Positions 44,118-62,470 of a stretch of DNA of 64,000 bases are shown piece by piece (the stretch's first letter is position 1; every line of letters starts with the position of its first letter). The position numbers and the translations under genes were made by a program. Source of the stretch: Pedosphaera sp. (lineage in GTDB: Bacteria; Verrucomicrobiota; Verrucomicrobiia; Limisphaerales; AAA164-E04); NCBI GenBank assembly GCA_002686885.1, contig NYYT01000012.1:84161-148160 (forward strand), in the 5' to 3' direction. The notes beneath the pieces are model-generated. The model was given only the letters and a program-made list of their open reading frames with translations. It was not told the DNA's origin and made no database searches.

Positions 44118-44855
44118 ATGGCACTGGTTGAATTACGCGACATCAAGAAGATCTACCATCTGGGAGGCGAAACCATTCGCGCTCTGGATGGGGTGAGCCT
44201 GGATGTTCAAGCTGGAGATTTCACTTCCATTATCGGCCCTTCGGGCAGTGGCAAATCCACCCTCATGCACATCCTGGGCTGTCTGGATACGCCGACTTCG
44301 GGCTCCATGAGTCTGGACGGCATGGACATCCACGACGCCACCCCCCGCCAGCTGGCAAAAGTAAGGGGTGAGAAAATCGGCTTCGTGTTTCAATTTTTTA
44401 ATCTGCTGCCCAAGCTCAATGTGGCTCAAAACGTCGAGCTCCCACTTATCTACCAGGGCACCTCAGGGCGTGGTCGCAAGGAAAAAGCCATGCAGGCGCT
44501 GGAATTGGTAGGGTTGCAGGACCGGGCAGGTCATCGTCCTTCTCAACTTTCCGGGGGACAGCAACAACGGGTCGCCATTGCTCGTGCACTGGTGAACGAC
44601 CCGCGCATCATTTTCGCTGATGAACCTACGGGAAATCTCGACACACATACCGGGGAAATGATCCTGGAAACCTTCTGCAAATTGCATCAGGAAGGCCGTA
44701 CGATCATGCTTGTCACCCACGACCCGGAAATCGCAGCCCTCACCCCTCAGAAAATTGAGATTAGAGATGGCAAGATTGCGCAAAATGTCGACGCCAAGCT
44801 CGCTGGAAAAGAAAGTCGTTTCAAACTCAGCACCTCATCCCATCAGAGTTCATGA
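44118..44855 (+). CDS. ABC transporter ATP-binding protein (MacB/LolD class)
   Basis: Walker [10 protein letters not shown], signature [15 protein letters not shown], Walker B IIFADEPT. Confidence 0.93.
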
Positions 44856-46237
44856 ATCTGCTCGATACCATTCTGGTGGGCATCAAGGAGATTTGGGCGC
44901 ATAAATTTCGATCAATGCTCACCATGCTGGGCATCATTCTGGGTGTCTCCAGTCTGGTCGCCATGTCCGCTCTGGTCAAAGGGATGGAAAATGGCATGAA
45001 GGAAGCACTCGTCGCCATGGGTGGACTGGAAAAGGTTCGTGTAGAGGCGCAGGACGACCTTCCGGCGTATCAAAAACACCTCACCGACCAGACCCCAGGC
45101 TTGCTCATGCGCGATGTCTATGCCCTTCAAGGTGGTGCTCCCCTGGTGGAGAACATTACGCCGATTGTCGAACAACATGGCTACCGATCTCGCATCAACA
45201 TCACTTATCAAAACAAGCGTGCTCGGCCATGGAGGATTTATGGCACCTGGCCCGGCATCCTCGATTTGGAGGACCATCGCGTTGAACACGGACGCATGTT
45301 CAACGAAATCGACAATGGGATGGCCCGCAGCGTCTGCGTGATTGGTGTCGAAATTCGAAATGACCTCTTCGGGGATCCTGAAAAGACAGGCAAGGAAATC
45401 ATTCCCGTCGGGAAGGTGATCCAGATCAATGGTCAGCCCTTCACCATTGTCGGAATGTTTGAACATTACATGACTGAAAAGGAGCGAAAGGAGAAGGAAC
45501 TGGCCCGACTGGAGGCGCTGAAGAATCCACAGGCCCAGGTGGGTGTGGTTCGTGACAAGGGACGCAGGGGCAGTGGCCCCAGCGGTTATGTTTTCCGCTT
45601 GAAGAACAATTCGGTCTTCATCCCCCTTCAAACCATGATGATCCAATTCCGTGCAGCTGCCGGGGTGGATGAAACAGCCGACCCGAAACTCAGTGGAATC
45701 TACATGAAGGTCAAGGATATTGGAGTGCTGGAAACGGCACTGCAGCAGATCCGAAATGTCCTCCAAGTTTCCCATAATGGCATTGAAGATTGGACCTTTC
45801 GCACCGAAGAAGACTTGGCGGACGGCATTCAGCTGACCATCAGCAATTTTCGCATGAGTGGGGTCATCATTGCTGCCATCGCACTGGTGGTGGGAGGCAT
45901 CGGCATCATGAACATCATGCTTGCCAGCATTTCGGAGAGAGTTCGCGAAATTGGTATTCGAAAAGCAGTTGGAGCCACCACCGCGGATATTTTCATTCAG
46001 ATCATCATGGAAAGCCTCGTCATCGCCCTGTTGGGAGGAATGATGGGTCTGGCGGTTTCCATTGCGCTGGTGCAGTCCATCACCGCATTCACTCCCACTG
46101 AAAACAACCCGGTCATCACTCTTCAGGCAATGGTCTTTGCGTTTGGATGTTCAGCCATGGTGGGGATGGTCGCAGGCATGATTCCGGCTTTCAAGGCATC
46201 GAAACTCCACCCGATTCAAGCTCTCAAATACGACTGA
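44852..46237 (+). CDS. ABC transporter permease, MacB/FtsX type with large periplasmic domain (paralogue 1)
   Basis: N-terminal KEIWAHKFRSMLTMLGIILGVSSLV (MacB_PCD). Three C-terminal FtsX helices (GGIGIMNIMLASISERVREIGIRKAVGA). ATGA overlap with the ATPase gene. Confidence 0.85.
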   Translation: MNLLDTILVGIKEIWAHKFRSMLTMLGIILGVSSLVAMSALVKGMENGMKEALVAMGGLEKVRVEAQDDLPAYQKHLTDQTPGLLMRDVYALQGGAPLVENITPIVEQHGYRSRINITYQNKRARPWRIYGTWPGILDLEDHRVEHGRMFNEIDNGMARSVCVIGVEIRNDLFGDPEKTGKEIIPVGKVIQINGQPFTIVGMFEHYMTEKERKEKELARLEALKNPQAQVGVVRDKGRRGSGPSGYVFRLKNNSVFIPLQTMMIQFRAAAGVDETADPKLSGIYMKVKDIGVLETALQQIRNVLQVSHNGIEDWTFRTEEDLADGIQLTISNFRMSGVIIAAIALVVGGIGIMNIMLASISERVREIGIRKAVGATTADIFIQIIMESLVIALLGGMMGLAVSIALVQSITAFTPTENNPVITLQAMVFAFGCSAMVGMVAGMIPAFKASKLHPIQALKYD

Positions 46238-46251
46238 GCTCTTGTCCATCT

Positions 46252-47619
46252 ATGAATCTTTTCAATGCCATTCTTATCGGTCTCAAGGACATTTGGTCTC
46301 ACAAATTCCGCACCCTTCTCACGATGTTCGGGATTGTGCTTGGGGTCTCCAGCCTGGTGGCCATGGCAGCAGTGATTACCGGAATGGAAAAAGGCATGAA
46401 GGAGTCGATGATTGCCATGGGTGGCTTGGATAAGATCCGTATTGACGACGAGGATGTCCCGACCTGGCAAGATCATTTAAAAAACCAGGCTCCAGGACGG
46501 CTGATCAAGGATGTGGAAGCTCTCAAGGCCAGCGCTCCCTTGATCACGACGATTTCACCCGAAATGCGTCTGGACTGGCGAGCCACGCGCGTGACCCGCC
46601 AGGGCCGATCCGCATCCACCTCTGAAATCGTGGGCGTCTGGCCGGCGGTGCTGGATATGAATCTCTACGAAGTCGAGCATGGTCGTTTCTTCTGCGACCT
46701 GGACGAAGAGTTTGCCAACAGCGTCTGTGTGATCGGGACAGGTGTGCGCGATCAGCTCTTTGGAAGTCCGGAGGAAAAAGGAACCGAAATCGTGCCCATC
46801 GGTGAAGTCCTTCAGGTCGGGGGCCAGCCCTTTACCATTGTTGGTATGTTCAAGCATTACGAAAGCGAACAAGAGCGTAAACTCAAGGAACTTGCGAAAA
46901 AGCAAGCCAAGGAGAACGAAGGGGGTGTGAAGCGCCAACGTGGCTGGAGCGGAGCCAAGAAGTGGGGCGATGCGTTCTGGAGGAAAAACAATGTGGTTTA
47001 CATGCCCTTGAATACTGCCTGGATCAAGTTCAGAGCTGCATCCAATGAAGACCAGACACCCGACCCTCGCTTGACGGATATCGACATCAAGATAGCCGAT
47101 CTGGATCTCCTGGAACCCGCTTTGCAACAGGCTCGCAACGTCATGCTGGTAACCCACAATGGCATCAACGACTTTGAATTCGATACTCAGGAAAACCAGA
47201 TCAACGACATTCGCACCCGTATTCGAAACATGCGCATCAGCCAAGGAGTGATTGCCGGTTTGAGTTTGCTGGTGGGCGGAATTGGTATCATGAACATCAT
47301 GCTTGCCAGCATCAACGAACGTATTCGCGAAATAGGCACCTGCAAGGCAGTCGGAGCGAGCAGTGAAGCCATCTTTACCCAGATCATTGTCGAAAGCATT
47401 GCGGTCGCCATGTTGGGCGCTTTAGTGGGTCTTGGATTTTCATTTCTGCTGGTCGAACTCATTGAGATCGCCTCCCCCGCACAGAATTCGCCCATCATTA
47501 CCGTTTACCCCATGGTGATTGCGGTGGGTTTCAGTGCCCTCGTAGGAGTGGTTGCTGGGCTCTTTCCGGCCTTCAAGGCAGCAGGTTTTCACCCAATTCA
47601 GGCCTTGCGCTACGAATAA
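46252..47619 (+). CDS. ABC transporter permease, MacB/FtsX type with large periplasmic domain (paralogue 2)
   Basis: Same architecture as paralogue 1 (KDIWSHKFRTLLTMFGIVLGVSSLV ... GGIGIMNIMLASINERIREIGTCKAVGA). Start placed at the ATG at 46252, 15 nt after the previous stop. Confidence 0.85.
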   Translation: MNLFNAILIGLKDIWSHKFRTLLTMFGIVLGVSSLVAMAAVITGMEKGMKESMIAMGGLDKIRIDDEDVPTWQDHLKNQAPGRLIKDVEALKASAPLITTISPEMRLDWRATRVTRQGRSASTSEIVGVWPAVLDMNLYEVEHGRFFCDLDEEFANSVCVIGTGVRDQLFGSPEEKGTEIVPIGEVLQVGGQPFTIVGMFKHYESEQERKLKELAKKQAKENEGGVKRQRGWSGAKKWGDAFWRKNNVVYMPLNTAWIKFRAASNEDQTPDPRLTDIDIKIADLDLLEPALQQARNVMLVTHNGINDFEFDTQENQINDIRTRIRNMRISQGVIAGLSLLVGGIGIMNIMLASINERIREIGTCKAVGASSEAIFTQIIVESIAVAMLGALVGLGFSFLLVELIEIASPAQNSPIITVYPMVIAVGFSALVGVVAGLFPAFKAAGFHPIQALRYE

Positions 47620-47788: not shown

Positions 47789-48019
47789 ATGGCAGACCTA
47801 GAAAATAAACAGCCTGAGAGCGTGGATGGTAAGTTTTATGTAGATGACCAGTGCATCGACTGTGATTTATGTCGCGAAACAGCACCTGAAAATTTCAAGC
47901 GCCAGGAAGATGGCGGATACTCCTACGTTTACAAACAGCCTGAGAACGACGACGAAGCTACTCAGTGCCAAGAAGCAATGGAAGGTTGTCCTGTCGAAGC
48001 CATTGGCGAGGACGGTTAA
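47789..48019 (+). CDS. small single-cluster ferredoxin
   Basis: CIDCDLC...C...CPVEAI cysteine pattern in 76 aa. Followed by a strong terminator. Confidence 0.75.
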   Translation: MADLENKQPESVDGKFYVDDQCIDCDLCRETAPENFKRQEDGGYSYVYKQPENDDEATQCQEAMEGCPVEAIGEDG

Positions 48020-48047: not shown

Positions 48048-48079
48048 AAAAGCCCGGGTCAACCACCCGGGCTTTTTTT
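48048..48079. terminator. bidirectional intrinsic terminator between the ferredoxin gene and the end of the BMC operon
   Basis: Perfect 12-bp stem AAAAGCCCGGGT / ACCCGGGCTTTT with a 5-nt loop (CAACC). It has a T-run on the plus strand and, through the A-run, on the minus strand as well. Confidence 0.85.
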
Positions 48080-48114: not shown

Positions 48115-49434
48115 TCATCCAAAGATCCGTTTGAGACGATCCTGATCATAGGCACGCCTCTGTTGAGCGGTCATGGTTTTGAAATCGGGTCGCCCATCGG
48201 ACAACATGGGCCAATCCACGGCACAGGGCGCTTCCCCTTGCCCGGATGCATCAGATACTTTGCCGGCAGGCAGTTCGGATTGCCTCTCTGCCTTCTCCGA
48301 CCCGCGAATCGGGCTCTCTCCCATCATGACACGGCTTTTCCCAGAAGAGGATTCATCATAACTCATCGCCTGCTCGGTAATGGCCAGATCTCGGTCCAGG
48401 GATCGGTGGGCCTTGATGCCTTTCTGCTGAAGAACGCCATGATAGGCATGCACCGCCTCCTTGGGTCCAATCACACCTTCGGTGATCAAGCGAAGCATTT
48501 CAATGAAGGCTAATTGATGCTCGGCTTGATTGATTTTACGCCCATAGAGTGCGACCCGAGCGCCATATTTCTGAGCATCGTGAATCAGTTTAAAGGCATC
48601 GTAGGTCGTGCCCGCACTCCCACCCAAAACGCCCACAATCATGTTGGGATCGTATTGAACCAACTCCTCCATCGCCCTGGGTCCATGATAGGGTATTTTG
48701 AGGAAAACAGGACGTCCGGCATCGGTCACACCTGCAAGACTGCGCAAAATATGATCGTTGATGAACTCACCCATTTTTTCAGGAGCGACCCCGGATGGCA
48801 CATTGGGATTGAAGACTTCAAGAAAATATCGAAATCGCTTGGCCTCTGCTTCCTCACGAAAAGCCTTGAAGGATTCCAGGGTGTGTTTATCCCGGGTCAG
48901 ATCGTTCACGAAGGTCACCGAGTAGAGGCCCAGGTTGGCCCCAGGAAACACATCCACCGAACGGTCACACTCGATCTGACCACATTGAATGTGATCGATG
49001 CTCGCTGACCGAAAAGGCTGGGCAGGCTCTGCCGTGTAGCAGCCATGTCGAATGGCCCAAACATCCGTCGCATCATTGGCCCTGGCAGCAGGCGTGATGG
49101 GGGAGGAGTCAAACAAACCCTCCTTGATGGAGAGTAGCTCATTGACGTAAGCCGACATCAAAACAATGTCGACTTGCCCCTGGTGGACGACTTCACGAAT
49201 GATATCGAGGAATTCAGGGAGATTTCGAAAACCAAACTCATCCCGCGACCATATTTCAGGGGAAAATCGTGCCGGCCGCTCTCCCTGAGCGGACAAATAA
49301 TGTCGCCCTCCTGTCGCCCGAACCCCAAAAGCCATGTCCGCATCTTTGGCGTCGGCAATGATGAAGGCTTTCGAGGCAGGATTTGCCCGAATGGCTTCAA
49401 GCTTTTGATCCAGAGATTTGATCATCGACGACAT
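48115..49434 (-). CDS. unassigned 439-aa protein, last gene of the BMC operon (possibly an aldolase-type TIM-barrel fold) with a ~90-aa low-complexity C-terminal extension
   Basis: Core of about 345 aa with AFIIADAKDADMAFG near the N-terminus and FLKIPYHG / GVLGGSAGTTYDAF later. These are reminiscent of DeoC/LacD/Cgl0159-like barrels, but this is by eye only. The tail is SSSGKSRVMMGESPIRGSEKAERQSELPAGKVSDASGQGEAP... and ends in TMTAQQRRAYDQDRLKRIFG. Confidence 0.5.
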   Translation of the reverse strand: MSSMIKSLDQKLEAIRANPASKAFIIADAKDADMAFGVRATGGRHYLSAQGERPARFSPEIWSRDEFGFRNLPEFLDIIREVVHQGQVDIVLMSAYVNELLSIKEGLFDSSPITPAARANDATDVWAIRHGCYTAEPAQPFRSASIDHIQCGQIECDRSVDVFPGANLGLYSVTFVNDLTRDKHTLESFKAFREEAEAKRFRYFLEVFNPNVPSGVAPEKMGEFINDHILRSLAGVTDAGRPVFLKIPYHGPRAMEELVQYDPNMIVGVLGGSAGTTYDAFKLIHDAQKYGARVALYGRKINQAEHQLAFIEMLRLITEGVIGPKEAVHAYHGVLQQKGIKAHRSLDRDLAITEQAMSYDESSSGKSRVMMGESPIRGSEKAERQSELPAGKVSDASGQGEAPCAVDWPMLSDGRPDFKTMTAQQRRAYDQDRLKRIFG

Positions 49435-49454: not shown

Positions 49455-50381
49455 TCACAGCTGAACCTTTGACATCGTTTCCTTGAGGGCGCGAGCCGAT
49501 TGCTGCAGTCCTGTTTGTTCTTTGGGCCACAACTTGAGTTCTACCTGCTGATGCACACCACCACGCCCCACCACCGTGGGCACGCTCAAACAAATATCCC
49601 TGATCTGATAGGTACCCTGCACCCGTGAAGAAACGGGCAGCAGGCGTCTCTGATCGAGAGCAATCGCATGAATCACGTCCCTGATGGCGATGCCCACGGC
49701 CCATCCGGCCCCACCCTTGCGCTTGATCACTTCCGCACCACTTCCTCGAGTGCGTGTGAATATCTGTCCCTGAAAGCCGGGACCACAGCCGGGATATTCG
49801 GTCAGCGGCAAACCATTCACAGAAGAGGCAGACCAGATGGGAACCATCGAATCGCCATGCTCCCCGAGCGTCAAGGCCTTGACCTGAGTCGGTGCCAGAT
49901 CAAGGGCTTCAGCGATCAGTGAGCTGAATCGAGTGGAATCAAGCATGGTTCCAAGCCCAATGACTTGTTGCCAGGGCAGCCCCAAACGCTCTCCTGCCAG
50001 ATGAGTCAGGATGTCGACAGGGTTGGAAACCACAAAAACGATGGCATCCTGACGCATGCCGGCTTTTTGAATGCTCTCGAGGATTTGAACAAACAGTGCC
50101 ACATTGCGATTGATCAAGTCCAAACGGGATTCATCGGGTTTACGACGAAGACCTGCAGTAATGAGGAAGATGTCCGAATCCGAAGCTTGTTCATAACTAC
50201 CCGCGGTGATGCGCTGATCCGCCGTAAAGGCCGAACCATGCAACAAGTCCAGTGCTTCCCCCTCGGCCATGGCCTGGTTGGCATCGATCAGTTGGATTTC
50301 TGAAACGATGCCACCACATTGCAGAGCAAAGGCTGCACAGGAACCCACTCGACCGCCACCTCCTATTATGCTGACTTTCAT
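49455..50381 (-). CDS. L-lactate/malate dehydrogenase family (L-2-hydroxyacid dehydrogenase)
   Basis: Rossmann motif MKVSIIGGGGRVG. Substrate loop ITAGLRRKPDESRLDL. Catalytic-His motif LGEHGDSMVPIWS. Confidence 0.85.
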   Translation of the reverse strand: MKVSIIGGGGRVGSCAAFALQCGGIVSEIQLIDANQAMAEGEALDLLHGSAFTADQRITAGSYEQASDSDIFLITAGLRRKPDESRLDLINRNVALFVQILESIQKAGMRQDAIVFVVSNPVDILTHLAGERLGLPWQQVIGLGTMLDSTRFSSLIAEALDLAPTQVKALTLGEHGDSMVPIWSASSVNGLPLTEYPGCGPGFQGQIFTRTRGSGAEVIKRKGGAGWAVGIAIRDVIHAIALDQRRLLPVSSRVQGTYQIRDICLSVPTVVGRGGVHQQVELKLWPKEQTGLQQSARALKETMSKVQL

Positions 50382-50414
50382 GATCTATTAAAAAAGGTTG
50401 TCAGTGTTTGCAAT

Positions 50415-51476
50415 CTACTTGTTCCCCAATTGAGACATGATCTGGTCGGTGATGGCTTGTACGGCTTGCTCAGTCGCCGGGTCCTGCGAGGCTCCCCCGC
50501 CCGAGGAAGCCGATGGTGTGGTGGCACAGGTCACTCCGGGCCGCCATTGTTCATTATCGCAGAGCTCACATTCCTTGAGCCCAAACCTCGGATCAGGGAT
50601 GCCAAGGTTTTGTTTGATATTGAGTAAGTCCTTGAGTTGCTCGGGATTCATGGTGTTGAGCGGCGTGCCGAGCTGGGAAGCTACCCAGATGGTTCGGCAA
50701 TAGGCTTCAAGAATCTCCATCTTGAAGTAGGCATCTTCCACGGTGAGGTGGCTCCATGCCACCGCTCCATGATTCCCCATCAATACGGTGTTGTGCTTGT
50801 CCACCAGATCCGCCACCAGCTGGCCCATCTCGGGCGTTCCCGGCGTGCGGTAGGGAGCAATGGGAACCTTGCCAATGAAAACCTCAATTTCAGGTATCAT
50901 GCAGGTCGGTGGTTCCACACCAGCCACCGCGTAGGCGGTTGCGTGGGGCGGGTGACAGTGAACCGTCGCCTTGGCGCGCGGTTGACGTTTCATGATTTCC
51001 AGGTGCATGAGAATTTCGCTGGTACGCTTTTTTTCTCCTGCTTTCTGCTGCCCATCCAGATCCACCAAACATAGATCTGCAGGCTTCATGAACCCCTTGG
51101 AAACCAGCGTCGGCGTGCATAAGGCCAGATCATCGGCCACTCGGATGGCGATATTGCCACCATTGCCATCCACATAGGCGCGTTGCCAAAGCCTTTGCCC
51201 GACATCGCAAATCTCCACCTTCAAGGCCTCCATTTGGGGCGTGCGGAAAAACGTATCAAGCTCCCGCTGCGAACTCTGTGCACTGATGCCGGCAGTCACG
51301 GCAGCCTCCACCGCAGCACCCGCTGCAGGGGTCAAACTGGAGGAATGGGGCTCCTGCTGGTTTCGAATCAAGTCACGGGCAGAGGGTGTCAAAATGGCAT
51401 CGGCAGTGATCGACTCAATGGAGGCTCCCTGCTTGAGTAAGGATTCAACGTCTTTGGCGCTGATTATTTTTTTCAT
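50415..51476 (-). CDS. class II (fuculose/rhamnulose-phosphate-type) aldolase with N- and C-terminal extensions; BMC signature enzyme
   Basis: Aldolase_II core (NGGNIAIR, VHCHPPHATAYA, MGNHGAVAW). It carries an extra ~75 aa at the N-terminus and ~50 aa at the C-terminus. ATGA overlap with the upstream BMC-P gene. Confidence 0.85.
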   Translation of the reverse strand: MKKIISAKDVESLLKQGASIESITADAILTPSARDLIRNQQEPHSSSLTPAAGAAVEAAVTAGISAQSSQRELDTFFRTPQMEALKVEICDVGQRLWQRAYVDGNGGNIAIRVADDLALCTPTLVSKGFMKPADLCLVDLDGQQKAGEKKRTSEILMHLEIMKRQPRAKATVHCHPPHATAYAVAGVEPPTCMIPEIEVFIGKVPIAPYRTPGTPEMGQLVADLVDKHNTVLMGNHGAVAWSHLTVEDAYFKMEILEAYCRTIWVASQLGTPLNTMNPEQLKDLLNIKQNLGIPDPRFGLKECELCDNEQWRPGVTCATTPSASSGGGASQDPATEQAVQAITDQIMSQLGNK

Positions 51477-51781
51477 GCGTCTTCTTTGGGTGTATAAAAG
51501 GTTTCATCGACCAGTGCTGCATTGATGGCATCAATGGGAATGGGAGGGTCAAAAGGTGAGGCGGCTTCTCGGCCTTCCACAAAACCCACTGTATCCCCCA
51601 CCCCTCCTCCGAGGTTGTCATAAATCACCAAAGAGGGTTCGTCAGTGATTTGATTCAAGGGTTGGTGGCCTTGTTGAAAATGTTTCCTGTTGAAGGGGCT
51701 GATCAACAGCCAGCGAGCTCCCTTGAGTTGAGGAACGCTTTGACTGAGGGTCACCCTTCCGATCACCGTTCCAAGCCTCAT
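51473..51781 (-). CDS. BMC vertex protein (BMC-P, EutN/CcmL family), paralogue 3
   Basis: MRLGTVIGRVTLSQ...LKGARWLLISP...DNLGGGVGDTV matches the EutN/CcmL pattern. Confidence 0.85.
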   Translation of the reverse strand: MRLGTVIGRVTLSQSVPQLKGARWLLISPFNRKHFQQGHQPLNQITDEPSLVIYDNLGGGVGDTVGFVEGREAASPFDPPIPIDAINAALVDETFYTPKEDA

Positions 51782-52056
51782 GCAGCAGCCTCCTTTTCAG
51801 GCTCATCAATGATGGCAATGATGATCTGTCTCACAGGGCTTTTGTCATCCATGACCGCCAGACGAGCAGCCGAACCATCCGAGGAAATGATGACCTTCTG
51901 ATGCATGCCCGCCCCCAGCGGATCAATGGCAATCACCGGGGTGCCCTCGGCAAGCCCACGGGCATCGAGGGGCTGGCAAATGAGCATCCGCCACCCTTGA
52001 AGACTCGGGTGTTTTCGGGTGGCGATCATACTGCCTTCGACACGTGCCAGTAGCAT
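51778..52056 (-). CDS. BMC vertex protein (BMC-P, EutN/CcmL family), paralogue 2
   Basis: MLLARVEGSMIATRKHPSLQGWRMLICQPLD...IDPLGAGMHQKVIISSDGSAAR. Confidence 0.9.
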   Translation of the reverse strand: MLLARVEGSMIATRKHPSLQGWRMLICQPLDARGLAEGTPVIAIDPLGAGMHQKVIISSDGSAARLAVMDDKSPVRQIIIAIIDEPEKEAAA

Positions 52057-52084
52057 GGGCTTGTTTGAATGAAGTTGGTTATTT

Positions 52085-53587
52085 TCAGTAAATCCGAAGG
52101 TTGTCCACCATGACGCACCGCCTGACGCGTGTGAAGGTCCGTGGATTGGTCACTCCTTCGCCGGTAGGCGTCGCAATGGAAAAACTCAGGTAACCTTCGC
52201 CCCCCAGGCCCAGCCCTGCCATACAGGGACCATTCTTGATGAACAAGGTCGTATCCAACGCTCGTGCCATCGCAGTCATGTGATTCACATCATGCGAATG
52301 GATGATCGATGTGTGCTTGTATTGGTGCTCTGCCTTGAGGGACTCCTCAATCCCCGCCTCGATGGAAGGCACTCTCACAATGGGAATGAAGGGCATCATT
52401 TGCTCCTCGTCGACAAATGGGTGAGAGGCATCGGTCTCCGCAAATAGCAATTCTGTGCCATCCGGCACACGCAGCCCCGCAGCCTGAGCCAGGACCGATA
52501 CGTCCTTGCCAATCAGGTCTTTATTGACGACGGCATGCGGACATCCTGCTCCCTGCCCCTCCTTGAAAGTGAAGGCAGCTTGAGTCAGCTGATCCAGTTG
52601 AGCGGCATTGAGGCGCACGGCCCCTGCCTTTTCCATCGCACCCATCAACTCATCAGCGATGTTTTCCAGAGCAAACACTTCTTTCTCGCCAATACAAAGC
52701 AAGTTGTTGTCAAAAGCAGCGCCCTGAATAATGGATTCAGCGGCTCGTTTCATACAGGCTGTGTCGTCCACCAGGACCGGTGGATTTCCAGGCCCTGCAC
52801 AGATGGCTCGCTTTCCGGTTTGCATGGCAGCCTTGACCACACCGGGCCCACCGGTCACACAAAGCAGGCGAACTGCTTCATGCGAGCACAATTCCTTGAA
52901 GGACTCCAAAGTGGGTTCTTCGATGATGCAGACTAGATTCTGAATCCCGGTTTCATGCTCGATGGCCTTGTTGAATTCCCTTACGGCCATGGCAGCGCAT
53001 CGCGATGCGGCAGGATGGGCATTGAAAACCACCGCATTACCGGCGGCGACGATATTGACGATATTACCTGCAAGAGTCGGAATGGAGTGGGTGGATGGGG
53101 TGATGGCCCCAACGACACCGAAAGGGGTGTATTCTTCGAGGGTGATGCCATGATCCCCACTACGCCCGTCGGGACGGATCCAGTCGACGCCAGGCACCAA
53201 GCCGATGATCTGGAGCTTACCGATCTTGTGATCCAGACGGCCGATCTTGGATTCTTCGAGCTCTATTTTACCCCACTCGTTGGCTCGATCCTCGCACATG
53301 GTTTTGACAATGCGCTCTACTTGCCGTCGGGCTTCAATCCCCTTTTTCTGTAGTTGTAGAAAGCCTTGTTGGGCGGCTTCACAGGCCTGGGCTGCTGTTT
53401 CAAAGACGCCGTGACGCCCCTTGGAAGAGGATGATACACCGCAAGAAGGAGGCGCGTAAGAGGGTGATGAGGCCACTACCGGCGGCGTGCTCGGTGCCGC
53501 TGGGGCCTGACTAGAGCCACCTCCCAACTTGCCGAGGACCTCTTGAATGACCTCCCGAATCAGGGTTTCGTTCATCTGCGAACTCAT
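52085..53587 (-). CDS. CoA-acylating aldehyde dehydrogenase (PduP/EutE-like) with N-terminal encapsulation peptide
   Basis: ALDH core with the catalytic Cys in NNLLCIGEKE. Start placed at MSSQMNETLIREVIQEVLGKL (ATG 53587). A P/S/A-rich linker follows the helix. Confidence 0.9.
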   Translation of the reverse strand: MSSQMNETLIREVIQEVLGKLGGGSSQAPAAPSTPPVVASSPSYAPPSCGVSSSSKGRHGVFETAAQACEAAQQGFLQLQKKGIEARRQVERIVKTMCEDRANEWGKIELEESKIGRLDHKIGKLQIIGLVPGVDWIRPDGRSGDHGITLEEYTPFGVVGAITPSTHSIPTLAGNIVNIVAAGNAVVFNAHPAASRCAAMAVREFNKAIEHETGIQNLVCIIEEPTLESFKELCSHEAVRLLCVTGGPGVVKAAMQTGKRAICAGPGNPPVLVDDTACMKRAAESIIQGAAFDNNLLCIGEKEVFALENIADELMGAMEKAGAVRLNAAQLDQLTQAAFTFKEGQGAGCPHAVVNKDLIGKDVSVLAQAAGLRVPDGTELLFAETDASHPFVDEEQMMPFIPIVRVPSIEAGIEESLKAEHQYKHTSIIHSHDVNHMTAMARALDTTLFIKNGPCMAGLGLGGEGYLSFSIATPTGEGVTNPRTFTRVRRCVMVDNLRIY

Positions 53588-53636
53588 AACAGCCGAATTA
53601 GTTGAGGATGAGCGGAGTGGAACCACCCCATTGAAT

Positions 53637-53648
53637 TAGATTTTGAAA
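53637..53648. promoter_or_regulatory. internal copy of the TAGATTTTGAAA motif in the BMC-P1/aldehyde-dehydrogenase intergenic gap
   Basis: The 12-mer is identical to 57051..57062 in the divergent control region. Confidence 0.4.
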
Positions 53649-53671
53649 ACATGGCATGGACAGAAAAGCTC

Positions 53672-53986
53672 TCACTCGCTCTGTGCATTGAAAATTTTGG
53701 TTCCTTTGACATCCACGGTATCCACAATGCCAATGACCACGGCATCGACAGGAGCCTGCTTCAAGTTGGGTGCCAGCCGCGCACTGCTGCCCTGACAGAA
53801 CAACACCATTTCACCCACCCCAGCTCCAACGCTGTCCACTGCCACAATGGTGTTTTTCCCTCCACGGAATTGTGTGGGATCCTGATCATCGACCAGTTGG
53901 GGACGCAACAAAAGCAACTTGCGGCCCGACATGGAGGGGTCCTTTTTGGTGGCCACCACCGCACCCTCGACTTTGGCTAGGAACAT
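53672..53986 (-). CDS. BMC vertex protein (BMC-P, EutN/CcmL family), paralogue 1
   Basis: MFLAKVEGAVVATKKDPSMSGRKLLLLRP...VDSVGAGVGEMVLFCQGSSAR. Confidence 0.9.
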   Translation of the reverse strand: MFLAKVEGAVVATKKDPSMSGRKLLLLRPQLVDDQDPTQFRGGKNTIVAVDSVGAGVGEMVLFCQGSSARLAPNLKQAPVDAVVIGIVDTVDVKGTKIFNAQSE

Positions 53987-54016
53987 ACCGTTAACGCTGT
54001 TGGCAAAGCTGATGCA

Positions 54017-54295
54017 TCATCCGGGGAGCACGGCTCCGATATCAGAGTGCGGTCGAGCAATGACATGCACGCTGACCAATTCTCCGCCGACTGATTTGAT
54101 GGCCTCGGCACCGGCGTCAGTTGCGGCCTTGACGGCAGCCACATCCCCCACGACGACCGCCGAAACGAGGGCATTGCCAACTTGTTTCATGGGACCTGCA
54201 AGGGTCACATTCGCTGCCTTGAGCATCGCATCGGTTCCTTCGACCAAGGCGATCAGACCACGCGTTTCAATCATTCCAATTGCTTGATTTGACAT
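54017..54295 (-). CDS. BMC shell hexamer protein (BMC-H, single Pfam00936-type domain)
   Basis: [32 protein letters not shown]...[13 protein letters not shown]. Confidence 0.95.
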   Translation of the reverse strand: MSNQAIGMIETRGLIALVEGTDAMLKAANVTLAGPMKQVGNALVSAVVVGDVAAVKAATDAGAEAIKSVGGELVSVHVIARPHSDIGAVLPG

Positions 54296-54313
54296 AGTAT
54301 TTCTTGTGTGTTG

Positions 54314-55501
54314 TTAAGATTTGTTTTCCAAAAATCGTTTAACCTCCCGAGCCACCACCAACTCCTCATTGGTGGGAATCACCAAGACTTTGACGGGGCT
54401 GTTTGCGTCGCTGATGAAACCCTCCTGCCCCAGGCACCCTTCGTTGAGCGATTCATCGAGCTGGATCCCCAACGGTTCCAGCTCACGACAGATGGCCTTC
54501 CTGAGCTGAGGACGGTTTTCTCCGATACCTGCAGTAAAGACCAATGCATCCAAGCCTCCCAACTCGAGGTAATAAGCCCCCATCCAACGACGCACTTCGG
54601 CGACGAGAAAATCCAGCGCAAGCTGCGCATCAGCATGACCCTCTTCTGCCCTAGACTGCACATCGCGCAGGTCGTTGAAGCCCCCAGAAAGGCCACTGAG
54701 GCCGCCTGAGGAACAAAGGTCGTGGAGCACTTGCTCCATGGTCCAACCCTGTTTCTGGATCATGTATGGAATGGCCATGGCATCGAGGTCACCCACCCGA
54801 TTGTTGTGAGGCAGGCCCGATTGGGGACTCAGCCCCATGCTATTGCCGATGGCCACGCCATCTCGTATGCCCGTCACGGAGGAGCTACCACCCAGGTGAG
54901 CGGATACCACCCGGAGAGACGGCCCTTTTACAAGAGATTGCCCCTGATTCACGTAGAGCTGTCGTGCCCTCTCAGCGACATCTTCCCTGCCAAGGAGTTC
55001 CGAAGAACGCTCAGCTATGAATTTGTGACTGGCCCCGTGAAAGCCCCACCGGCGCACCCCCGCCTCAAACCAACTTTGAGGCACTCCATAGCGTTTGGAA
55101 GTTTCAGGAATCCATTGGTAGAAGGCGGTCTCGAACAACCCCACCAGAGGCGTGTACGGCATGCGCTCGGCGAAAAGCCGAATCCCCGTCAGGTAGGGAG
55201 GATTATGGGCCGGGGCAATCTGGTTCCCTGCTTCCATATCCTTGAGAACCTCTTCAGAAAGAGCGACGCACCCTGTGACCGACTGAGCCAGGACCGTCTT
55301 AAAGCCAATGGCAGAAAGTTCTGATTCCTCCTCAATCGCGCCTGCCTCCTTGAGCTGTTCCAGACATTCCTGAATGGCCGAAGGATAGTCCTTGACCCGC
55401 TCAAGCCCACCACGATGCAATAAGGCAACTTCTTCTGAAGTGAACGCAAAAAGACGCCACTTCAAAGAAGTCGAACCTAAATTGGCAACGAGGATTTTCA
55501 C
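54314..55501 (-). CDS. ackA: acetate/propionate (acyl) kinase
   Basis: KILVANLGSTSLKW N-terminal motif and the typical ASKHA fold motifs. I favour the GTG at 55501, which gives M-KILVANLGS. The ORF-track ATG at 55534 adds 11 atypical residues. Confidence 0.88.
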   Translation of the reverse strand: MKILVANLGSTSLKWRLFAFTSEEVALLHRGGLERVKDYPSAIQECLEQLKEAGAIEEESELSAIGFKTVLAQSVTGCVALSEEVLKDMEAGNQIAPAHNPPYLTGIRLFAERMPYTPLVGLFETAFYQWIPETSKRYGVPQSWFEAGVRRWGFHGASHKFIAERSSELLGREDVAERARQLYVNQGQSLVKGPSLRVVSAHLGGSSSVTGIRDGVAIGNSMGLSPQSGLPHNNRVGDLDAMAIPYMIQKQGWTMEQVLHDLCSSGGLSGLSGGFNDLRDVQSRAEEGHADAQLALDFLVAEVRRWMGAYYLELGGLDALVFTAGIGENRPQLRKAICRELEPLGIQLDESLNEGCLGQEGFISDANSPVKVLVIPTNEELVVAREVKRFLENKS

Positions 55502-55566
55502 GGATAAAAGTCTACCGCTGCGCCACCGATCCAAGGAATACCGTGGATCGTGCGATGCAGAATGGA

Positions 55567-55851
55567 TCAGGATTGTTTGAGCCAGGAGCCCAGACCGCTG
55601 AGGTCTTCATGCGGGCGTGGAATCACCTGCACGCTGATCACTTCCCCCACTTGGGAAGCGGCTGCAGCACCTGCGTCAGTGGCTGCCTTCACAGCAGCCA
55701 CATCCCCTCGGAAGAAGCCAGTAACATACCCACTGCCAATCTTTTCCCAACCCACCATAGTGACATTGGCGGCCTTGAGTGCTGCATCGCAGGCTTCGAG
55801 CATGGCGCAGAGACCACGCGTTTCGATCATGCCTATTGCTTGATTTGCCAT
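55567..55851 (-). CDS. BMC shell hexamer protein (BMC-H)
   Basis: [34 protein letters not shown]...[13 protein letters not shown]. Confidence 0.95.
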
Positions 55852-55889
55852 AATTATTTTGTGTTTGGTTCTTTTAGAAATCGAGAGAT

Positions 55890-56180
55890 CTATCCCTTTT
55901 TGGCTTTGCCATCAGGCACGAATGCCTTCAGCAAATCTTCGTGTGGTCTTGCCAGCAGGTGTGAACTGATCAGTTCACCCACCCGCGCTGCGGCATTGGA
56001 GCCCGCATCTACAGCAGCCTTGACACTGCCGACGTCACCCTGCGCCAGCACGGTGATCATCCCTCCACCAATGGGGATGGTTTTGACAAGGCGCACATTG
56101 GCGGCTTTGACCATGGCGTCGCTGGCTTCTACCGCGCCGACATAGCCTTTGGTTTCAATCATACCTAATGCTTCACTCAT
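55890..56180 (-). CDS. BMC shell hexamer protein (BMC-H, PduA/J-like)
   Basis: [32 protein letters not shown]...[13 protein letters not shown], with a basic C-terminal tail. Confidence 0.95.
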
Positions 56181-56231
56181 AGTATTGTTTTTTGGGGTTT
56201 TACGATTATTGGAAAAAAGGTTCTAAAATAG

Positions 56232-56912
56232 TTATCGGATCAGTTCGCACGACGTGTTGGGAAGCAGATTGCAGGCATTGCCTTCGTCCGTGTCGATGTG
56301 CACTTCCAATTTAAAGCTGGGATCCACTCGCACCAACATCTGTTCGAAAGTCATGCCACAGGCTCCTCCCACCCGCATGCTCATGAAATCGCCCTGCGAG
56401 ACTTGGTAGAAACGGGCATCATCGGGATGCATGTGAACGTGCCTAAGTGCACGAATCACCCCTTGATCCATTTCAAAAAAGCCATTCGGCCCCATCAACA
56501 TGGCACCTGGTGTACCTACAATGTCGCCGGAGCTCTTGAGTGGAATATCAAAACCCAGAGCGACAGCATCGGTGTAGGCCAGCTCGACTTGATTGAGTGT
56601 GCGGCAAGGCCCCAAGATGCGAAGGTTGGAAATGACACGACTACGAGGCCCCACCAGAGTCACTGTTTCCTTCGCAGCAAATTGACCCTCCTGGTAAAGC
56701 CATTTGTGGACTGAAAGCTGGTGTCCTGGACCAAACAAGGCCTCGACCGCCTCTTGAGTCAAATGACAATGCCGCGCACTAACGTTGACCACCAAGGGGT
56801 TGGGAGCCTGCGCAGCCTGAGGCACTGGCTGCCCCATCCGCTGGTAGACAGCCTGCCGGACCCAGTGCTCAACAACCGCACGATGAGGGAGACTTGATTG
56901 GCTCGACATCAT
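56232..56912 (-). CDS. pduL: phosphate acyltransferase, PduL type (PTAC)
   Basis: Two PduL repeats (NVSARHCHL and IRALRHVHMHP). Start placed at MMSSQSSLPHRAVVEHWVRQAVYQRM (ATG 56912). The ORF-track start at 57002 lies in AT-rich promoter-like sequence. Confidence 0.88.
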   Translation of the reverse strand: MMSSQSSLPHRAVVEHWVRQAVYQRMGQPVPQAAQAPNPLVVNVSARHCHLTQEAVEALFGPGHQLSVHKWLYQEGQFAAKETVTLVGPRSRVISNLRILGPCRTLNQVELAYTDAVALGFDIPLKSSGDIVGTPGAMLMGPNGFFEMDQGVIRALRHVHMHPDDARFYQVSQGDFMSMRVGGACGMTFEQMLVRVDPSFKLEVHIDTDEGNACNLLPNTSCELIR

Positions 56913-57120
56913 TTTCTTATGCCTATCAAAATCTACCACGTCCATGATATTGTCAAGAATTATCTTCCAATTTCTACCAAAATCTTTCAAATAATATTTC
57001 AAACATTCATCTTAAGATAAATTTGTGTGAATAAGTTTGAGCCTGATGATAGATTTTGAAAGTTTTTTTAAATGACGACCGTGAACTTTCGTGGCATCTT
57101 TTCCCAAACTCTTCCTTTTC
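56913..57120. promoter_or_regulatory. AT-rich divergent control region between pduL (BMC operon) and the DeoR regulator, with a 10-bp inverted repeat
   Basis: TCAAAATCTA at 56927..56936 and its exact complement TAGATTTTGA at 57051..57060. An 8/10 direct copy CCAAAATCTT lies at 56978..56987. Confidence 0.5.
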
Positions 57121-57879
57121 ATGCAAGCTGAAGAACGCCAGAAACGCATCACCGATCATCTGCAAAAGGTTGAATTTTCAACCTTGGATGAACTGTCCGA
57201 GTTGGTCGATGCTTCCATTTCGACCGTTCGAAGGGATCTAACCCTCCTAGAAACCACAGGTCTGGTCAAAAGGACCCATGGAGGAGCTCGACTCCTGCAA
57301 CCTCAATCCCAGGAATTTATCTTTACTGAGAGGGAAACGCGGGAAAACGACGAGAAGGACCTTATCGGAAAGGCCTGCGCCCGCTTGATCCCCCCGAACC
57401 AAAGCGTGATCATCGATGCAGGAACAACCGCCTTCCATGCAGCCAAGCACTTGGGGGGTGGAGCTCCTCAAATCATCACCAATTCATTACCCGTGGCCAA
57501 CCACTACGCCTCCAACGGCAATGTAGAGGTCATTTTGTCTGGAGGTGTGATCTATCCAAGATTGGGGGTCATGGTCGGCCCCATTGCCAACGAAACTTTT
57601 TCACGTATGCATGCAGATTACGCCATCATGGGCTCTGGGGGGATCACCGAAGAAGGGATCACCAACTCGCACAATCTGCTCATTGATATTCAGAAGGAAA
57701 TGCTTCGAGCAGCTCAAAAAGTCATTTTTTGCCTGGATCACACCAAATTTGGGAGACGCTCGGTTTCATTCCTCTGTGATCTCGGCCAAGTCGATTCCAT
57801 CATCACAGACACCAAGGCCCCCCCTGCCCTGCTGGAGCACTTCTCGTCCAAGGGTATTGAGATCGTCCTTGCTCACTGA
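57121..57879 (+). CDS. DeoR-family transcriptional regulator
   Basis: N-terminal wHTH (RQKRITDHLQKVEFSTLDELSELVDASISTVRRDLTLLE) plus a DeoR C-terminal sensor domain. Divergent from the BMC operon. Confidence 0.9.
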   Translation: MQAEERQKRITDHLQKVEFSTLDELSELVDASISTVRRDLTLLETTGLVKRTHGGARLLQPQSQEFIFTERETRENDEKDLIGKACARLIPPNQSVIIDAGTTAFHAAKHLGGGAPQIITNSLPVANHYASNGNVEVILSGGVIYPRLGVMVGPIANETFSRMHADYAIMGSGGITEEGITNSHNLLIDIQKEMLRAAQKVIFCLDHTKFGRRSVSFLCDLGQVDSIITDTKAPPALLEHFSSKGIEIVLAH

Positions 57880-57907: not shown

Positions 57908-59383
57908 TCAATCCCAATAGGTGCCTTCCTGCAGGATTTGTTGCCGATAGGCACGAAGATTCTCCACCAGCTTCTCAGCTCTCTCCGGGTATTCCGCAGC
58001 ACGATTGAAGCGTTCTCCGAGGTCCTCTTCGACCTGAAAAAGAAGCGGGGCTGCCTCGGATACCGTAAATCCATAATCATCCCCCAGCTGGGATCCAATG
58101 CGGATATGGCATTTCCAGGGTCCTTCTCTCAAGGCAGAGGCTTGATTGTCATGGTAGGAATAAAGGAATCGAAACGGGGATACCTCTCCGGAAAAGTGCG
58201 CCGGAGCCAGCCAGGGAAGGAGGTCCCTGCCATCCACGGAGCGATCGTCCGGCAGAGGCTGACCCGCCAAATGCATGAGTGTGGGGAACACATCCAGAGT
58301 CGAAGCGGGCTCAAGAATGCGCGTTTGCCCTTTAATGACTCCTGGCCAATAGAAAATGCCCGGTACCCGATGCCCGCCTTCCCAGGTCGAACCCTTCCCA
58401 TCGCGAAACGGGTAGGCATTGCCTACATGCATCCGAGCCTCGCCATATTTGGGGTGTGAGGCTGTCTCCTTGAAGCGCAGCCAGGGGCCGTTGTCCGACG
58501 AAAAGACGATGAGCGTATGGTTGGTCAGTTCCAGCTTGGAGAGTCGTTTCAGAATGCGCTCCATCGAATGATCGATTTCAGCCATGACATCCCCCAGCAG
58601 TCCACGACGAGACCGTCCAACGAAAGCATCGGAAGCGTAGAGTCCCAGATGAGGTTGATTATGAGCCAGATAAACAAAAAAAGGTTGAGATGCGTTTTGC
58701 TCGATAAAGGACAAAGCCGCATCCGTGTAGCGTTGGGTCAGGGAAGCCGAAATACCGGGGTGCGATGGAAGATCACGCCCCAGCTCAACATAGCCCCTCA
58801 CTGGTTGGTCGCCGTTGACATCACTCTGCAAAAGCTTGGCATTATCATAGTCATGGGACACGTTGGTTCCGAGCCACTGATCAAAGCCATGCGCCAGCGG
58901 GAGCGCCTCGGGGGTCCTTTGGTTTTTCTCATTCGGGTTCCCCAAATGCCATTTACCAAAGAGAGCAGTGGCATACCCACTGGCCTTGAACCCCTCAGCC
59001 AAGGTCCTTTCCTTGGGGTGCATGTGGCGTGCAGCACCCGGGCCGATCACCCATGATCCAAGACCGGACCGACCCGGCACTCTACCCGTCAGAAGAGAGT
59101 AACGAGAGGCCGAACATGCCGGCGAAGACGTGTAAAATTGAGTGAATTGGGCTCCCTCCCATGCGAGACGACTGATGGTCGGTGTCTCGATGGTAGGGTT
59201 TCCATGATGGGCAAAGTCTCCGTAGCCCGCATCATCGAGAAAGACGAGAATGACGTTGGGACGATCCAAGGCAGGACGAGTGGCAGCCTCGGCGGCCTTG
59301 GAGGCGGAAAGCACTCCTGTGGCGACACTCAGCAATAATGCGAGCCAGCATGGATACTTTGAAAACTCATTGAAGTAATTCAT
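57908..59383 (-). CDS. secreted formylglycine-dependent sulfatase (arylsulfatase A family)
   Basis: PNVILVFLDDAGYGDF and the active-site segment SSPACSASRYSLLTGR. Signal peptide from the ATG at 59383. Overlaps the upstream TolC-like gene by 17 nt. Confidence 0.88.
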   Translation of the reverse strand: MNYFNEFSKYPCWLALLLSVATGVLSASKAAEAATRPALDRPNVILVFLDDAGYGDFAHHGNPTIETPTISRLAWEGAQFTQFYTSSPACSASRYSLLTGRVPGRSGLGSWVIGPGAARHMHPKERTLAEGFKASGYATALFGKWHLGNPNEKNQRTPEALPLAHGFDQWLGTNVSHDYDNAKLLQSDVNGDQPVRGYVELGRDLPSHPGISASLTQRYTDAALSFIEQNASQPFFVYLAHNQPHLGLYASDAFVGRSRRGLLGDVMAEIDHSMERILKRLSKLELTNHTLIVFSSDNGPWLRFKETASHPKYGEARMHVGNAYPFRDGKGSTWEGGHRVPGIFYWPGVIKGQTRILEPASTLDVFPTLMHLAGQPLPDDRSVDGRDLLPWLAPAHFSGEVSPFRFLYSYHDNQASALREGPWKCHIRIGSQLGDDYGFTVSEAAPLLFQVEEDLGERFNRAAEYPERAEKLVENLRAYRQQILQEGTYWD

Positions 59384-61151: not shown

Positions 61152-61156
61152 TCAAA

Positions 61157-62464: not shown

Positions 62465-62470
62465 GACACC

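Follow-up and report, generated by a model that had tools for sequence, protein, structure and literature searches.

A predicted class I aldolase-fold enzyme with a conserved C-terminal peptide, encoded at the end of PVM-type microcompartment operons

Background

What does the last gene of a bacterial microcompartment (BMC) operon encode when no family model recognises its product? The question is raised by a 64,000-nt stretch of the Pedosphaera sp. assembly GCA_002686885.1 (contig NYYT01000012.1, positions 84,161 to 148,160), which we call the window and in which all coordinates are counted from the first nucleotide. Here a BMC operon of the PVM (Planctomycetes and Verrucomicrobia) type ends with a gene for a 439-aa protein, the target of this study (48115..49434, minus strand, starting with ATG and with its stop codon at 48115-48117 in the list of open reading frames). 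A preliminary description, made from the letters of the window, had left the protein unassigned and had compared it by eye to aldolase-type TIM barrels, with a tail laid out like an encapsulation peptide (EP). The peptides that it quoted are all found in this reading frame: AFIIADAKDADMAFG at residues 23-37, FLKIPYHG at 244-251, GVLGGSAGTTYDAF at 268-281 and the C-terminal TMTAQQRRAYDQDRLKRIFG at 420-439.

It is by way of PVM BMCs that Verrucomicrobiota and Planctomycetota consume the fucose and rhamnose of algal polysaccharides such as fucoidan, a process recognised as a point of control in the turnover of marine carbon. Pfam-based comparison of loci was the main source of the accepted parts list and pathway, and such a comparison is blind to proteins without a Pfam match. 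The target is not listed in Axen 2014 or in the EP review of Aussignargues 2015, a comparison that did not cover the original 2014 PVM characterisation. Neither the main text nor Supplementary Data 2 and 6 of Sutter 2021 list it, naming PvmB-O only, and it is lacking from the Orellana 2021 pathway model and from the Verrucomicrobial and Planctomycetal fucoidan papers. Literature searches yielded no characterised member of its family, no class I fuculose/rhamnulose-1-phosphate aldolase and no report of the gene in a PVM locus.

Our best explanation is that the target may well be a second, encapsulated aldehyde-generating lyase of the PVM BMC. What is new here is a class I aldolase subfamily together with an EP-like, chemically distinct terminal signal. 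The parts of this explanation differ in strength, and we take them in turn: the fold, the tail, the linkage to BMC operons and the reaction.

Results and discussion

Fold and predicted active site

Searches with family models left the target unassigned, as in the preliminary description. It has no match in Pfam, and none of 93 family members has one, PF01791 included, even at E <= 1; against NCBIfam it gives sub-threshold matches only, of 14-18 bits where the cut-offs are 241-299, and the curated thresholds of PF01791, TIGR01949, NF005556, NF006081 and NF040816 are all missed. The weak profile matches among the 93 members are to the ADH-synthase subfamily (92 of 93), LsrF (88 of 93) and archaeal class I fructose-bisphosphate (FBP) aldolase (44 of 93), with the best family-profile match at E ~6e-6. 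An exhaustive profile search gave a family of 1317 clusters at 50% identity from at least 550 species genomes, within which target orthologues are ~70% identical across Verrucomicrobiota and a sister group of 330-350-aa proteins consists of the core alone, with no tail. Named members of this large set are labelled 'hypothetical protein', and two carry the JGI automatic name 'DhnA family fructose-bisphosphate aldolase class Ia'. Going by these matches, the target appears to be a superfamily relative of the DhnA/FbaB/LacD class I aldolases, outside every modelled family.

Some matches were rejected as noise. When PDB sequences were searched with the single sequence and with shallow profiles, the matches were a glucanotransferase (E 0.49) and a luciferase-like monooxygenase (E 0.011), the second of them via the low-complexity linker. 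Pfam scans of the tail-less relatives returned spurious sub-threshold matches only.

Structure prediction needed a diverse alignment: with 33 near-identical orthologues as input, AlphaFold gave a model too poor to use, at a mean confidence (pLDDT) of 53.8, because the orthologues are so highly conserved. The final AlphaFold2 model was built on an alignment of 93 sequences, including 68 tail-less relatives; it has a pLDDT of 85.8, a predicted TM-score of 0.79 and eight strand-helix units. When it was compared with the PDB using Foldseek, 161 hits were obtained at E <= 1e-3, headed by M. jannaschii ADH synthase, S. pyogenes LacD, E. coli LsrF and T. tenax FBP aldolase (2qjg, 3jrk, 3glc and 1w8s; all at probability 1.0 and E ~1e-8 to 1e-9, best-quoted 3.5e-9). 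The target-normalised TM-score is 0.69-0.77 to 2qjg, 1w8s and 3glc and ~0.55 to LacD. Model, Foldseek, profiles and invariant residues together delimit a catalytic core of residues 1-359 (48358..49434, minus strand), predicted to form a (beta/alpha)8 barrel of the DhnA/LacD class I aldolase type. The barrel guessed by eye is therefore the one that the model gives, an enzyme fold, and only its size needed correction, from about 345 to about 360 aa.

The candidate Schiff-base lysine picked out in FLKIPYHG also proved to be the right residue. It is Lys246 (codon 48697..48699, minus strand), which sits on strand 6 (residues 245-247), is invariant in all 93 aligned sequences and aligns by hidden Markov model (HMM) with the lysine of LsrF 'IIKTYY', K203, which is Ala in the 4p2v chain. 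In LsrF, K203 is the catalytic, structurally conserved Schiff-base lysine, and the phosphate is contacted by G226/G227 and G253/R254 (PMC2728841). The HMM alignment pairs G271-G272 of the target with LsrF 'AGG' and G298-R299 with LsrF 'GRNI', all of them invariant, and GVLGGSAGTT is the predicted strand-7 phosphate loop. Invariant residues stand at the C-terminal ends of all eight strands (D28/K30/D31/D33, L92, R118/N120, S172/T174, E206/N211, K246, G271/G272/T276 and G298/R299), and in the model Asp28, Arg118/Asn120, Ser172/Thr174 and Glu206 line the mouth of the barrel. D28, with D31 and D33, is a candidate at the end of strand 1 for the general acid/base Asp of the superfamily, in a stretch that has no residue-level alignment to a solved member. 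On the model and this pattern of invariance, the core is almost certainly a class I aldolase-fold enzyme whose predicted Schiff-base and phosphate sites are intact. It is a deep-branching relative of the DhnA/FbaB/LacD class I aldolases, outside all curated models.

The same residues bear on whether the protein is an enzyme at all. A non-catalytic scaffold or sensor, whose barrel would bind a sugar phosphate without turnover and organise cargo or report metabolites via the tail, has precedents in the non-functional enzymes that retain EPs in other BMCs (PMC11585597), and three tail-bearing relatives (P0254, P0171 and P0387) lack the lysine, two of them, P0254 and P0171, being translationally coupled to an activator. 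We consider this reading very improbable for the target: K246, D28, E206 and the GG and GR pairs are invariant in it and in all 93 aligned main-family members, which argues for catalysis.

One feature of the barrel separates lineages. The loop that follows strand 1 is longer by ~13-15 residues (…RHYLSAQGERPARF…) in Verrucomicrobial orthologues (residues ~43-57; window 49264-49308, minus strand); this extra segment is missing in Planctomycetal and tail-less members and is modelled at lower confidence (pLDDT 75-85).

A conserved terminal peptide on a disordered linker

The core is followed by a tail in two parts. Residues 360-407 (48 aa; 48214..48357, minus strand) form a Ser/Gly/Glu/Pro-rich linker predicted to be disordered, with pLDDT below 50 for residues 364-402, and residues 408-439 (32 aa; 48118..48213, minus strand) form a conserved motif with a predicted helix at 423-435 and pLDDT of 71-94. 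The preliminary description had a tail of about 70 aa, Ser/Gly/Glu/Pro-rich and ending in a helix-prone segment; that layout stands, with the sizes just given in place of its estimate.

Tail statistics were drawn from 74 complete orthologues. Across these, conservation is 83% in the core, 31% in the linker and 63% in the last 32 residues, and the linker varies in length from 26 to 71 aa with a median of 49. The motif reads WP-x4-G-x-PDF-x2-M-x4-R-x2-Y-x3-RL-x-R-x-FG, in which W408, P409, G414, P416, D417, F418, M421, R426, Y429, R433 and L434 are each 86-100% conserved. In 52 of 58 proteins the distance from the PDF tripeptide to the C-terminus is exactly 24 residues. The motif has a Verrucomicrobial variant, WP..PDF..M..QRRAYD..RLKR.FG, and a Planctomycetal one, PDF..MT..EKLAYN..RRDRIFG. 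The tail is thus conserved among orthologues in its terminal part. Tail-less homologues, including one from Opitutaceae, end straight after the core.

The conserved positions of the helix (421, 425, 426, 429, 433, 434 and 438) follow an i, i+4 pattern, with the opposite face variable, which points to one specific docking surface. When 1.9 Mb of related DNA was scanned with the motif, 87 of 89 matches fell at the C-terminus of the target family, and the motif was found on no other protein there. The peptide alone gave DUF3784 in Pfam at E 0.045, under the cut-off, and no match among PDB sequences. This pattern of conservation makes the tail, in all likelihood, a specific docking peptide.

One locus, L032, had seemed to hold a second tail-bearing protein. 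The candidate was rejected as a duplicated 3' fragment of the target around an inserted MazF-like toxin module. In this locus (L032 11303-12279) the target orthologue is immediately followed by an inserted MazF/PemK-like toxin gene (minus strand, 11406-11759), and the last ~50 target codons, tail motif included, are duplicated beyond the insertion.

Linkage to PVM microcompartment operons

Pfam scans of the window give the operon, in transcription order on the minus strand, as PduL (56232-57002), two BMC-H genes (55890-56180 and 55567-55851), AckA (54314-55534), BMC-H (54017-54295), BMC-P (53672-53986), the aldehyde dehydrogenase AldDH (52085-53626), two further BMC-P genes (51778-52056 and 51473-51781), a class II aldolase (50415-51476), Ldh/Mdh (49455-50381) and the target; without the target it covers 49455..57002. 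The Ldh/Mdh stop codon occupies 49455-49457, so that the gap to the target ATG at 49434 is exactly the 20 nt first reported. About 40 nt past the target stop codon lies a bidirectional intrinsic terminator (48048..48079; identified from sequence and fold) composed of A7, a 7-bp GC stem, a 7-nt loop and T4, which reads AAAAAAA-GCCCGGG-tggttga-CCCGGGC-TTTT from 48079 to 48048. Its hairpin has a folding energy of -30.8 kcal/mol and a z-score of -5.4 against shuffles. Placed between the target and a convergent ferredoxin gene, it is common to both and closes the BMC operon. A consensus scanner overlooked it because its T-run has four T's and the scanner needs five.

The target, the shell genes and the core-enzyme genes lie on one strand in one transcription unit, and a strong hairpin is seen after the target alone. 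Inside the target gene, matches to promoter and terminator consensus sequences are no more frequent than expected by chance. Given the 20-nt gap and the terminal hairpin, we are highly confident that the target is co-transcribed with the PVM BMC, which agrees with the earlier statements that the gene ends at the operon terminator and is co-expressed with the microcompartment.

The association extends well beyond the window. We compared 57 GTDB loci that were anchored on the target and extended at least 5 kb upstream of it. In 49 of them (86%), in Verrucomicrobiota and Planctomycetota alike, the target directly follows the class II aldolase and shell genes, and Ldh/Mdh accompanies it in 22 of these 49. 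Orthologues are thus mostly found beside a BMC operon. Tail-less homologues, in the ten contexts examined, occur only outside BMC loci. For the reverse direction the anchor was the PVM-type class II aldolase, in 80 metagenomic loci of which 27 had at least 2.5 kb downstream; the target was present in 18 of the 27 (67%) and Ldh/Mdh (PvmO) in 11. In both phyla the target is placed after the aldolase or after Ldh. The target is a frequent, non-universal terminal gene of PVM operons.

Two side observations concern these operons. The literature credits PvmO (Ldh/Mdh) with NAD+ recycling in the PVM compartment; the gene (window 49455-50381; loci L001-L168) is missing from over half of the PVM operons sampled. 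At L051 2160-10101 the BMC operon is fragmented, with AldDH in four pieces, BMC-P in two and AckA reduced to a stub, and the tail of the target is frameshifted (…PDFAHMARLSAVLMTKRD). The operon may be decaying, or the long-read metagenome-assembled genome may contain indel errors.

Evidence weighing against encapsulation

A number of observations weigh against the reading of the target as an encapsulated lyase, the chemistry of the tail among them. Canonical EPs are amphipathic helices of ~12-18 aa with ~34% I/L/V, less than 1% aromatic residues, almost no Pro and no sequence conservation, and the linkers that precede them in BMC aldolases measure 23-81 aa (PMC4594438). Residues 422-438 of the target have 12% I/L/V, 12% F/W/Y, 59% K/R/D/E/Q/N, a net charge of +3 and a hydrophobic moment (muH) of 0.23; the EPs of the aldolase (EQAVQAITDQIMSQL) and AldDH (LIREVIQEVLGKL) of the same operon have a muH of 0.34-0.38 and 24-35% I/L/V. 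The tail therefore fails the compositional criteria for an EP. It is like a canonical EP in its terminal place, its poorly conserved preceding linker and its helical character, and in being absent from tail-less homologues outside BMC loci, though not from every homologue there. It is unlike one in its basic character, its scarcity of aliphatic residues, its conserved sequence and the Pro and Gly of the conserved segment before the helix, and in occurring also in a sigma54-coupled, non-BMC subclade. The resemblance to encapsulation peptides first proposed thus holds for the linker-plus-terminal-helix layout and fails for the chemistry.

That subclade supplies the next set of objections. Five tail-bearing proteins (P0171, P0254, P0387, P0392 and P0395) form a separate group, monophyletic in 56 of 60 bootstrap replicates, and monophyly of all tail-bearers was recovered in 2 of the 60; we had expected to find the group inside the BMC-linked clade, and the phylogeny placed it elsewhere. 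In all three members with readable context (P0171, P0254 and P0395; L169 10001-13071, L171 433-3458 and L174 10001-13047) the gene overlaps by 4 nt a gene for a ~620-aa activator with Yop-YscD/FHA, GAF, sigma54-interaction and HTH_8 domains. The two long loci contain no shell genes within 10 kb. K246 is lost in three of the five aligned members (P0254, P0171 and P0387), which keep the C-terminal motif and may be metabolite-sensing pseudo-enzymes paired with the regulator. The motif of the subclade, PDFxxMTxxEKLxYNxxRRDRIFG, with a conserved Thr ('MT'), is nearly identical to that of Planctomycetal BMC-operon proteins, which suggests a single origin and a portable protein-binding function. The tail peptide is thus not exclusive to BMC operons. 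A further tail-bearer from another phylum, P0422 of Sumerlaeaceae, had been expected in a BMC locus; it proved to stand alone, with a degenerate motif.

Other points are more general. Eight of the 57 target orthologues (14%) have no BMC genes within 5-10 kb, one third of the aldolase-anchored PVM loci have no target nearby, and the published PVM pathway model requires no second aldolase. The target misses all curated family thresholds and is 10-17% identical to characterised aldolases. The pLDDT of the tail in the monomer model could reflect packing on the enzyme itself.

Part of this evidence favours a cytosolic accessory aldolase, co-regulated with the BMC and not encapsulated, that would act for instance on the sugar phosphate of a side pathway. 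Its tail would serve in oligomerisation or autoregulation, or would dock the enzyme on something other than the shell, such as a regulator. The un-EP-like tail (basic, 12% I/L/V, sequence-conserved), the same motif in a phylogenetically separate FHA-GAF-sigma54-coupled subclade with no shell genes nearby, and the tail pLDDT of up to 94 in the monomer model all agree with it. So does the fact that relatives of the fold are decamers and that related aldolases are known to swap terminal helices (PMC2728841), and AckA and Ldh/Mdh of the same operon are likewise without obvious EPs. On the other side, a disordered linker of variable length (26-71 aa) is a tether and not a short-range structural arm, and tail-less homologues of ~50% identity evidently fold and function without the tail. 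Moreover, PVM BMCs are known from two phyla only, the same two in which the tail-bearing clade occurs, and 86% of its genes lie in the operon. We regard the cytosolic enzyme as possible and rather doubtful.

Encapsulation of the target via its tail remains plausible. Tail-bearing genes lie in PVM operons at 49 of 57 loci and tail-less ones near shell genes at none of 10, the exceptions being the sigma54-coupled subclade and stand-alone genes. A docking partner in the BMC shell or the cargo core is a reasonable possibility, held with less confidence than the docking function as such.

Predicted reaction

The tail-less relatives, mainly from Alpha-, Beta- and Gammaproteobacteria and often on Rhizobiales chromids, with one from Opitutaceae, point to the reaction. 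All ten contexts that we examined are sugar-utilisation clusters and none is near shell genes; nine contain a sugar kinase (FGGY, PfkB or ADP-PFK/GK), and the tenth a lyxose-isomerase-family neighbour. The family member is overlapped by a PfkB kinase gene in Shinella and P0384, accompanied by an ADP-PFK/GK-family kinase and an SDR in Herbaspirillum, Acidisoma and A. tumefaciens, by an FGGY kinase and a GlpD-type FAD dehydrogenase in P0127, A. tumefaciens 1D1609 and Vibrio (the three contexts with a GlpD-type dehydrogenase) and by an FGGY kinase alone in P0142, and it adjoins the lyxose-isomerase-family gene in Opitutaceae.

The gene order in Vibrio nigripulchritudo is Zn-dependent alcohol dehydrogenase, GlpD-like dehydrogenase, family member, aldehyde dehydrogenase. 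In such a cluster the GlpD-type enzyme would convert a polyol phosphate to a 2-keto-1-phosphate, the class I aldolase would cleave this to dihydroxyacetone phosphate (DHAP) and an aldehyde, and the next enzyme would oxidise the aldehyde. By analogy, the Vibrio-type cluster would be a cytosolic counterpart of the BMC logic. In two Verrucomicrobial metagenome-assembled genomes the tail-bearing gene lies away from BMC genes (L015 8687-9982 and L031 8744-9919) and directly follows a PfkB-type 'prokaryotic ketohexokinase' (PF25270); this kinase was rejected as a general partner, being confined to these two related loci among all those fetched. On genomic context, the family reaction is probably the cleavage of a ketose-1-phosphate to DHAP and an aldehyde. 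The 'second C-C lyase' offered as an example in the preliminary description is, given fold, lysine and contexts, the best-supported predicted function.

Six positions of the active-site loops separate the BMC-linked clade from the tail-less one, mostly by changes to more hydrophobic or aromatic residues (tail-less to tail-bearing: G35A, P36F, N97V, I117A, N250H and R278Y). Speculatively, these changes are compatible with a 6-deoxy sugar as substrate.

The fold would also accommodate other chemistry, such as an LsrF-like CoA-dependent thiolase or an ADH-synthase-like transaldolase that would convert, for example, a diketo or deoxy-keto sugar phosphate to DHAP and an acyl-CoA for PduL and AckA. 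The best profile matches, LsrF and ADH synthase, are among the top structural matches as well and use the same lysine for non-canonical reactions, and the operon already has a CoA-dependent AldDH and PduL. Such matches are too weak for transfer of a reaction, however, with LacD and the FBP aldolases equal structurally, and the kinase, GlpD-like dehydrogenase and aldehyde dehydrogenase of the tail-less contexts fit plain aldol cleavage. We judge a reaction of this other kind unlikely.

With aldol cleavage as the reaction, the target would be a second lyase that generates aldehyde, next to the class II fuculose/rhamnulose-1-phosphate aldolase. Its substrate would probably be one on which the class II enzyme performs poorly, either a stereoisomer of 6-deoxy-ketohexose-1-phosphate or a different ketose-1-phosphate, and its aldehyde product would supply the encapsulated aldehyde dehydrogenase. 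In the least certain step, the flexible linker and 32-residue peptide would dock the enzyme on a partner, most likely a shell protein or core cargo enzyme, through a face made up of Met421, Gln425, Arg426, Tyr429, Arg433, Leu434 and Phe438.

Comparison with known aldolases

The DhnA/FbaB enzymes are the sole recurrent sequence-profile matches of the family. ADH synthase MJ0400 of M. jannaschii, the T. tenax FBP aldolase and E. coli LsrF share with the target the (beta/alpha)8 barrel, the strand-6 Schiff-base lysine, the GG (strand 7) and GR (strand 8) phosphate loops and, putatively, the Asp at the end of strand 1. The target differs from them in its low sequence identity (the 10-17% already noted) and in a core ~90 residues longer with extra loops, and the linker and C-terminal motif of the PVM clade occur in none of them. 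LacD is likewise class I and a strong structural match, with the same gene logic of kinase plus aldolase as the tail-less homologues; unlike those of LacD, the partner kinases of the target family are also of FGGY and ADP-PFK/GK type, and GlpD-like dehydrogenases occur as well. YihT, the sulfofructose-1-phosphate aldolase, is a class I DHAP-dependent enzyme encoded beside a PfkB-type sugar kinase.

PvmN, the class II fuculose/rhamnulose-1-phosphate aldolase and PVM signature enzyme, shares with the target the operon and a proposed conversion of ketose-1-phosphate to DHAP and aldehyde, and it too has a C-terminal extension on a long linker (PMC4594438). The two are unlike in fold and mechanism, metal-dependent PF00596 against a Schiff-base TIM barrel, and in their tails, a canonical amphipathic EP (EQAVQAITDQIMSQL) against a basic conserved motif. 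In the window, the Pfam domain of the class II aldolase (50415-51476, minus strand) covers residues 88-262 only. Its N-terminal 87 aa (MKKIISAKDVESLLKQG...ILTPSARDLI) may be a fused PvmL, the short flavoprotein-like element of the 2021 BMC catalogue, and at its C-terminus a Cys-rich stretch precedes the EP (CELCDNEQWRPGVTC).

A class I aldolase-fold enzyme that serves as an aldehyde source in a metabolosome and bears a targeting extension has a precedent in DERA (pfam01791), the signature enzyme of SPU-type BMCs (PMC11585597; PMC8217296). DERA differs from the target in being a recognisable PF01791 member with N-terminal EPs, whereas the target is PF01791-negative, belongs to PVM loci and has a C-terminal, non-EP-like motif. 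Among BMCs, pfam01791 aldolases have been recorded in SPU loci only (PMC11585597).

Implications

The target occurs in about two thirds of PVM operons and is commoner there than the Ldh/Mdh to which cofactor recycling is assigned. If it is encapsulated, the organelle would hold two aldehyde-producing lyases, and its substrate range and stoichiometry would need review. If the tail binds the shell or the cargo core, it would offer a compact, sequence-defined targeting tag for synthetic compartments. A wider scheme, which we put forward tentatively, is that the PVM BMC has a second, Schiff-base signature aldolase from an undescribed family, giving it a wider sugar range and recruited by a sequence-specific basic docking peptide on a flexible tether, a cargo signal unlike the degenerate amphipathic EPs. 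In a sister clade the peptide would have found a second use, linking a pseudo-enzyme that binds sugar phosphates with an FHA-sigma54 activator. BMCs aside, the label of class I aldolase-fold sugar-phosphate enzyme can now be given to a large family that is 'hypothetical' to PGAP, Pfam and NCBIfam, with a candidate pathway of kinase, GlpD-like dehydrogenase and aldolase in Rhizobiales and Vibrio.

Neighbouring genes in the window

Upstream of the operon, a divergent DeoR-family regulator (57091..57879, plus strand; Pfam HTH_DeoR and DeoRC) occupies the same place as in related loci. Beside it lies a sulfatase gene (57908-59479, minus strand), which fits a lifestyle of sulfated-polysaccharide degradation. 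At the other end, the ferredoxin gene that converges on the target and has the bidirectional terminator in common with it (47789-48019, plus strand) encodes a 76-aa single-cluster 4Fe-4S protein (Fer4_13). MacB/FtsX-type ABC efflux modules stand on both flanks of the BMC locus (44852-47619, plus strand, and 59367-63943, minus strand), the second of them, on the far side, also with an outer-membrane factor and an HlyD-like adaptor.

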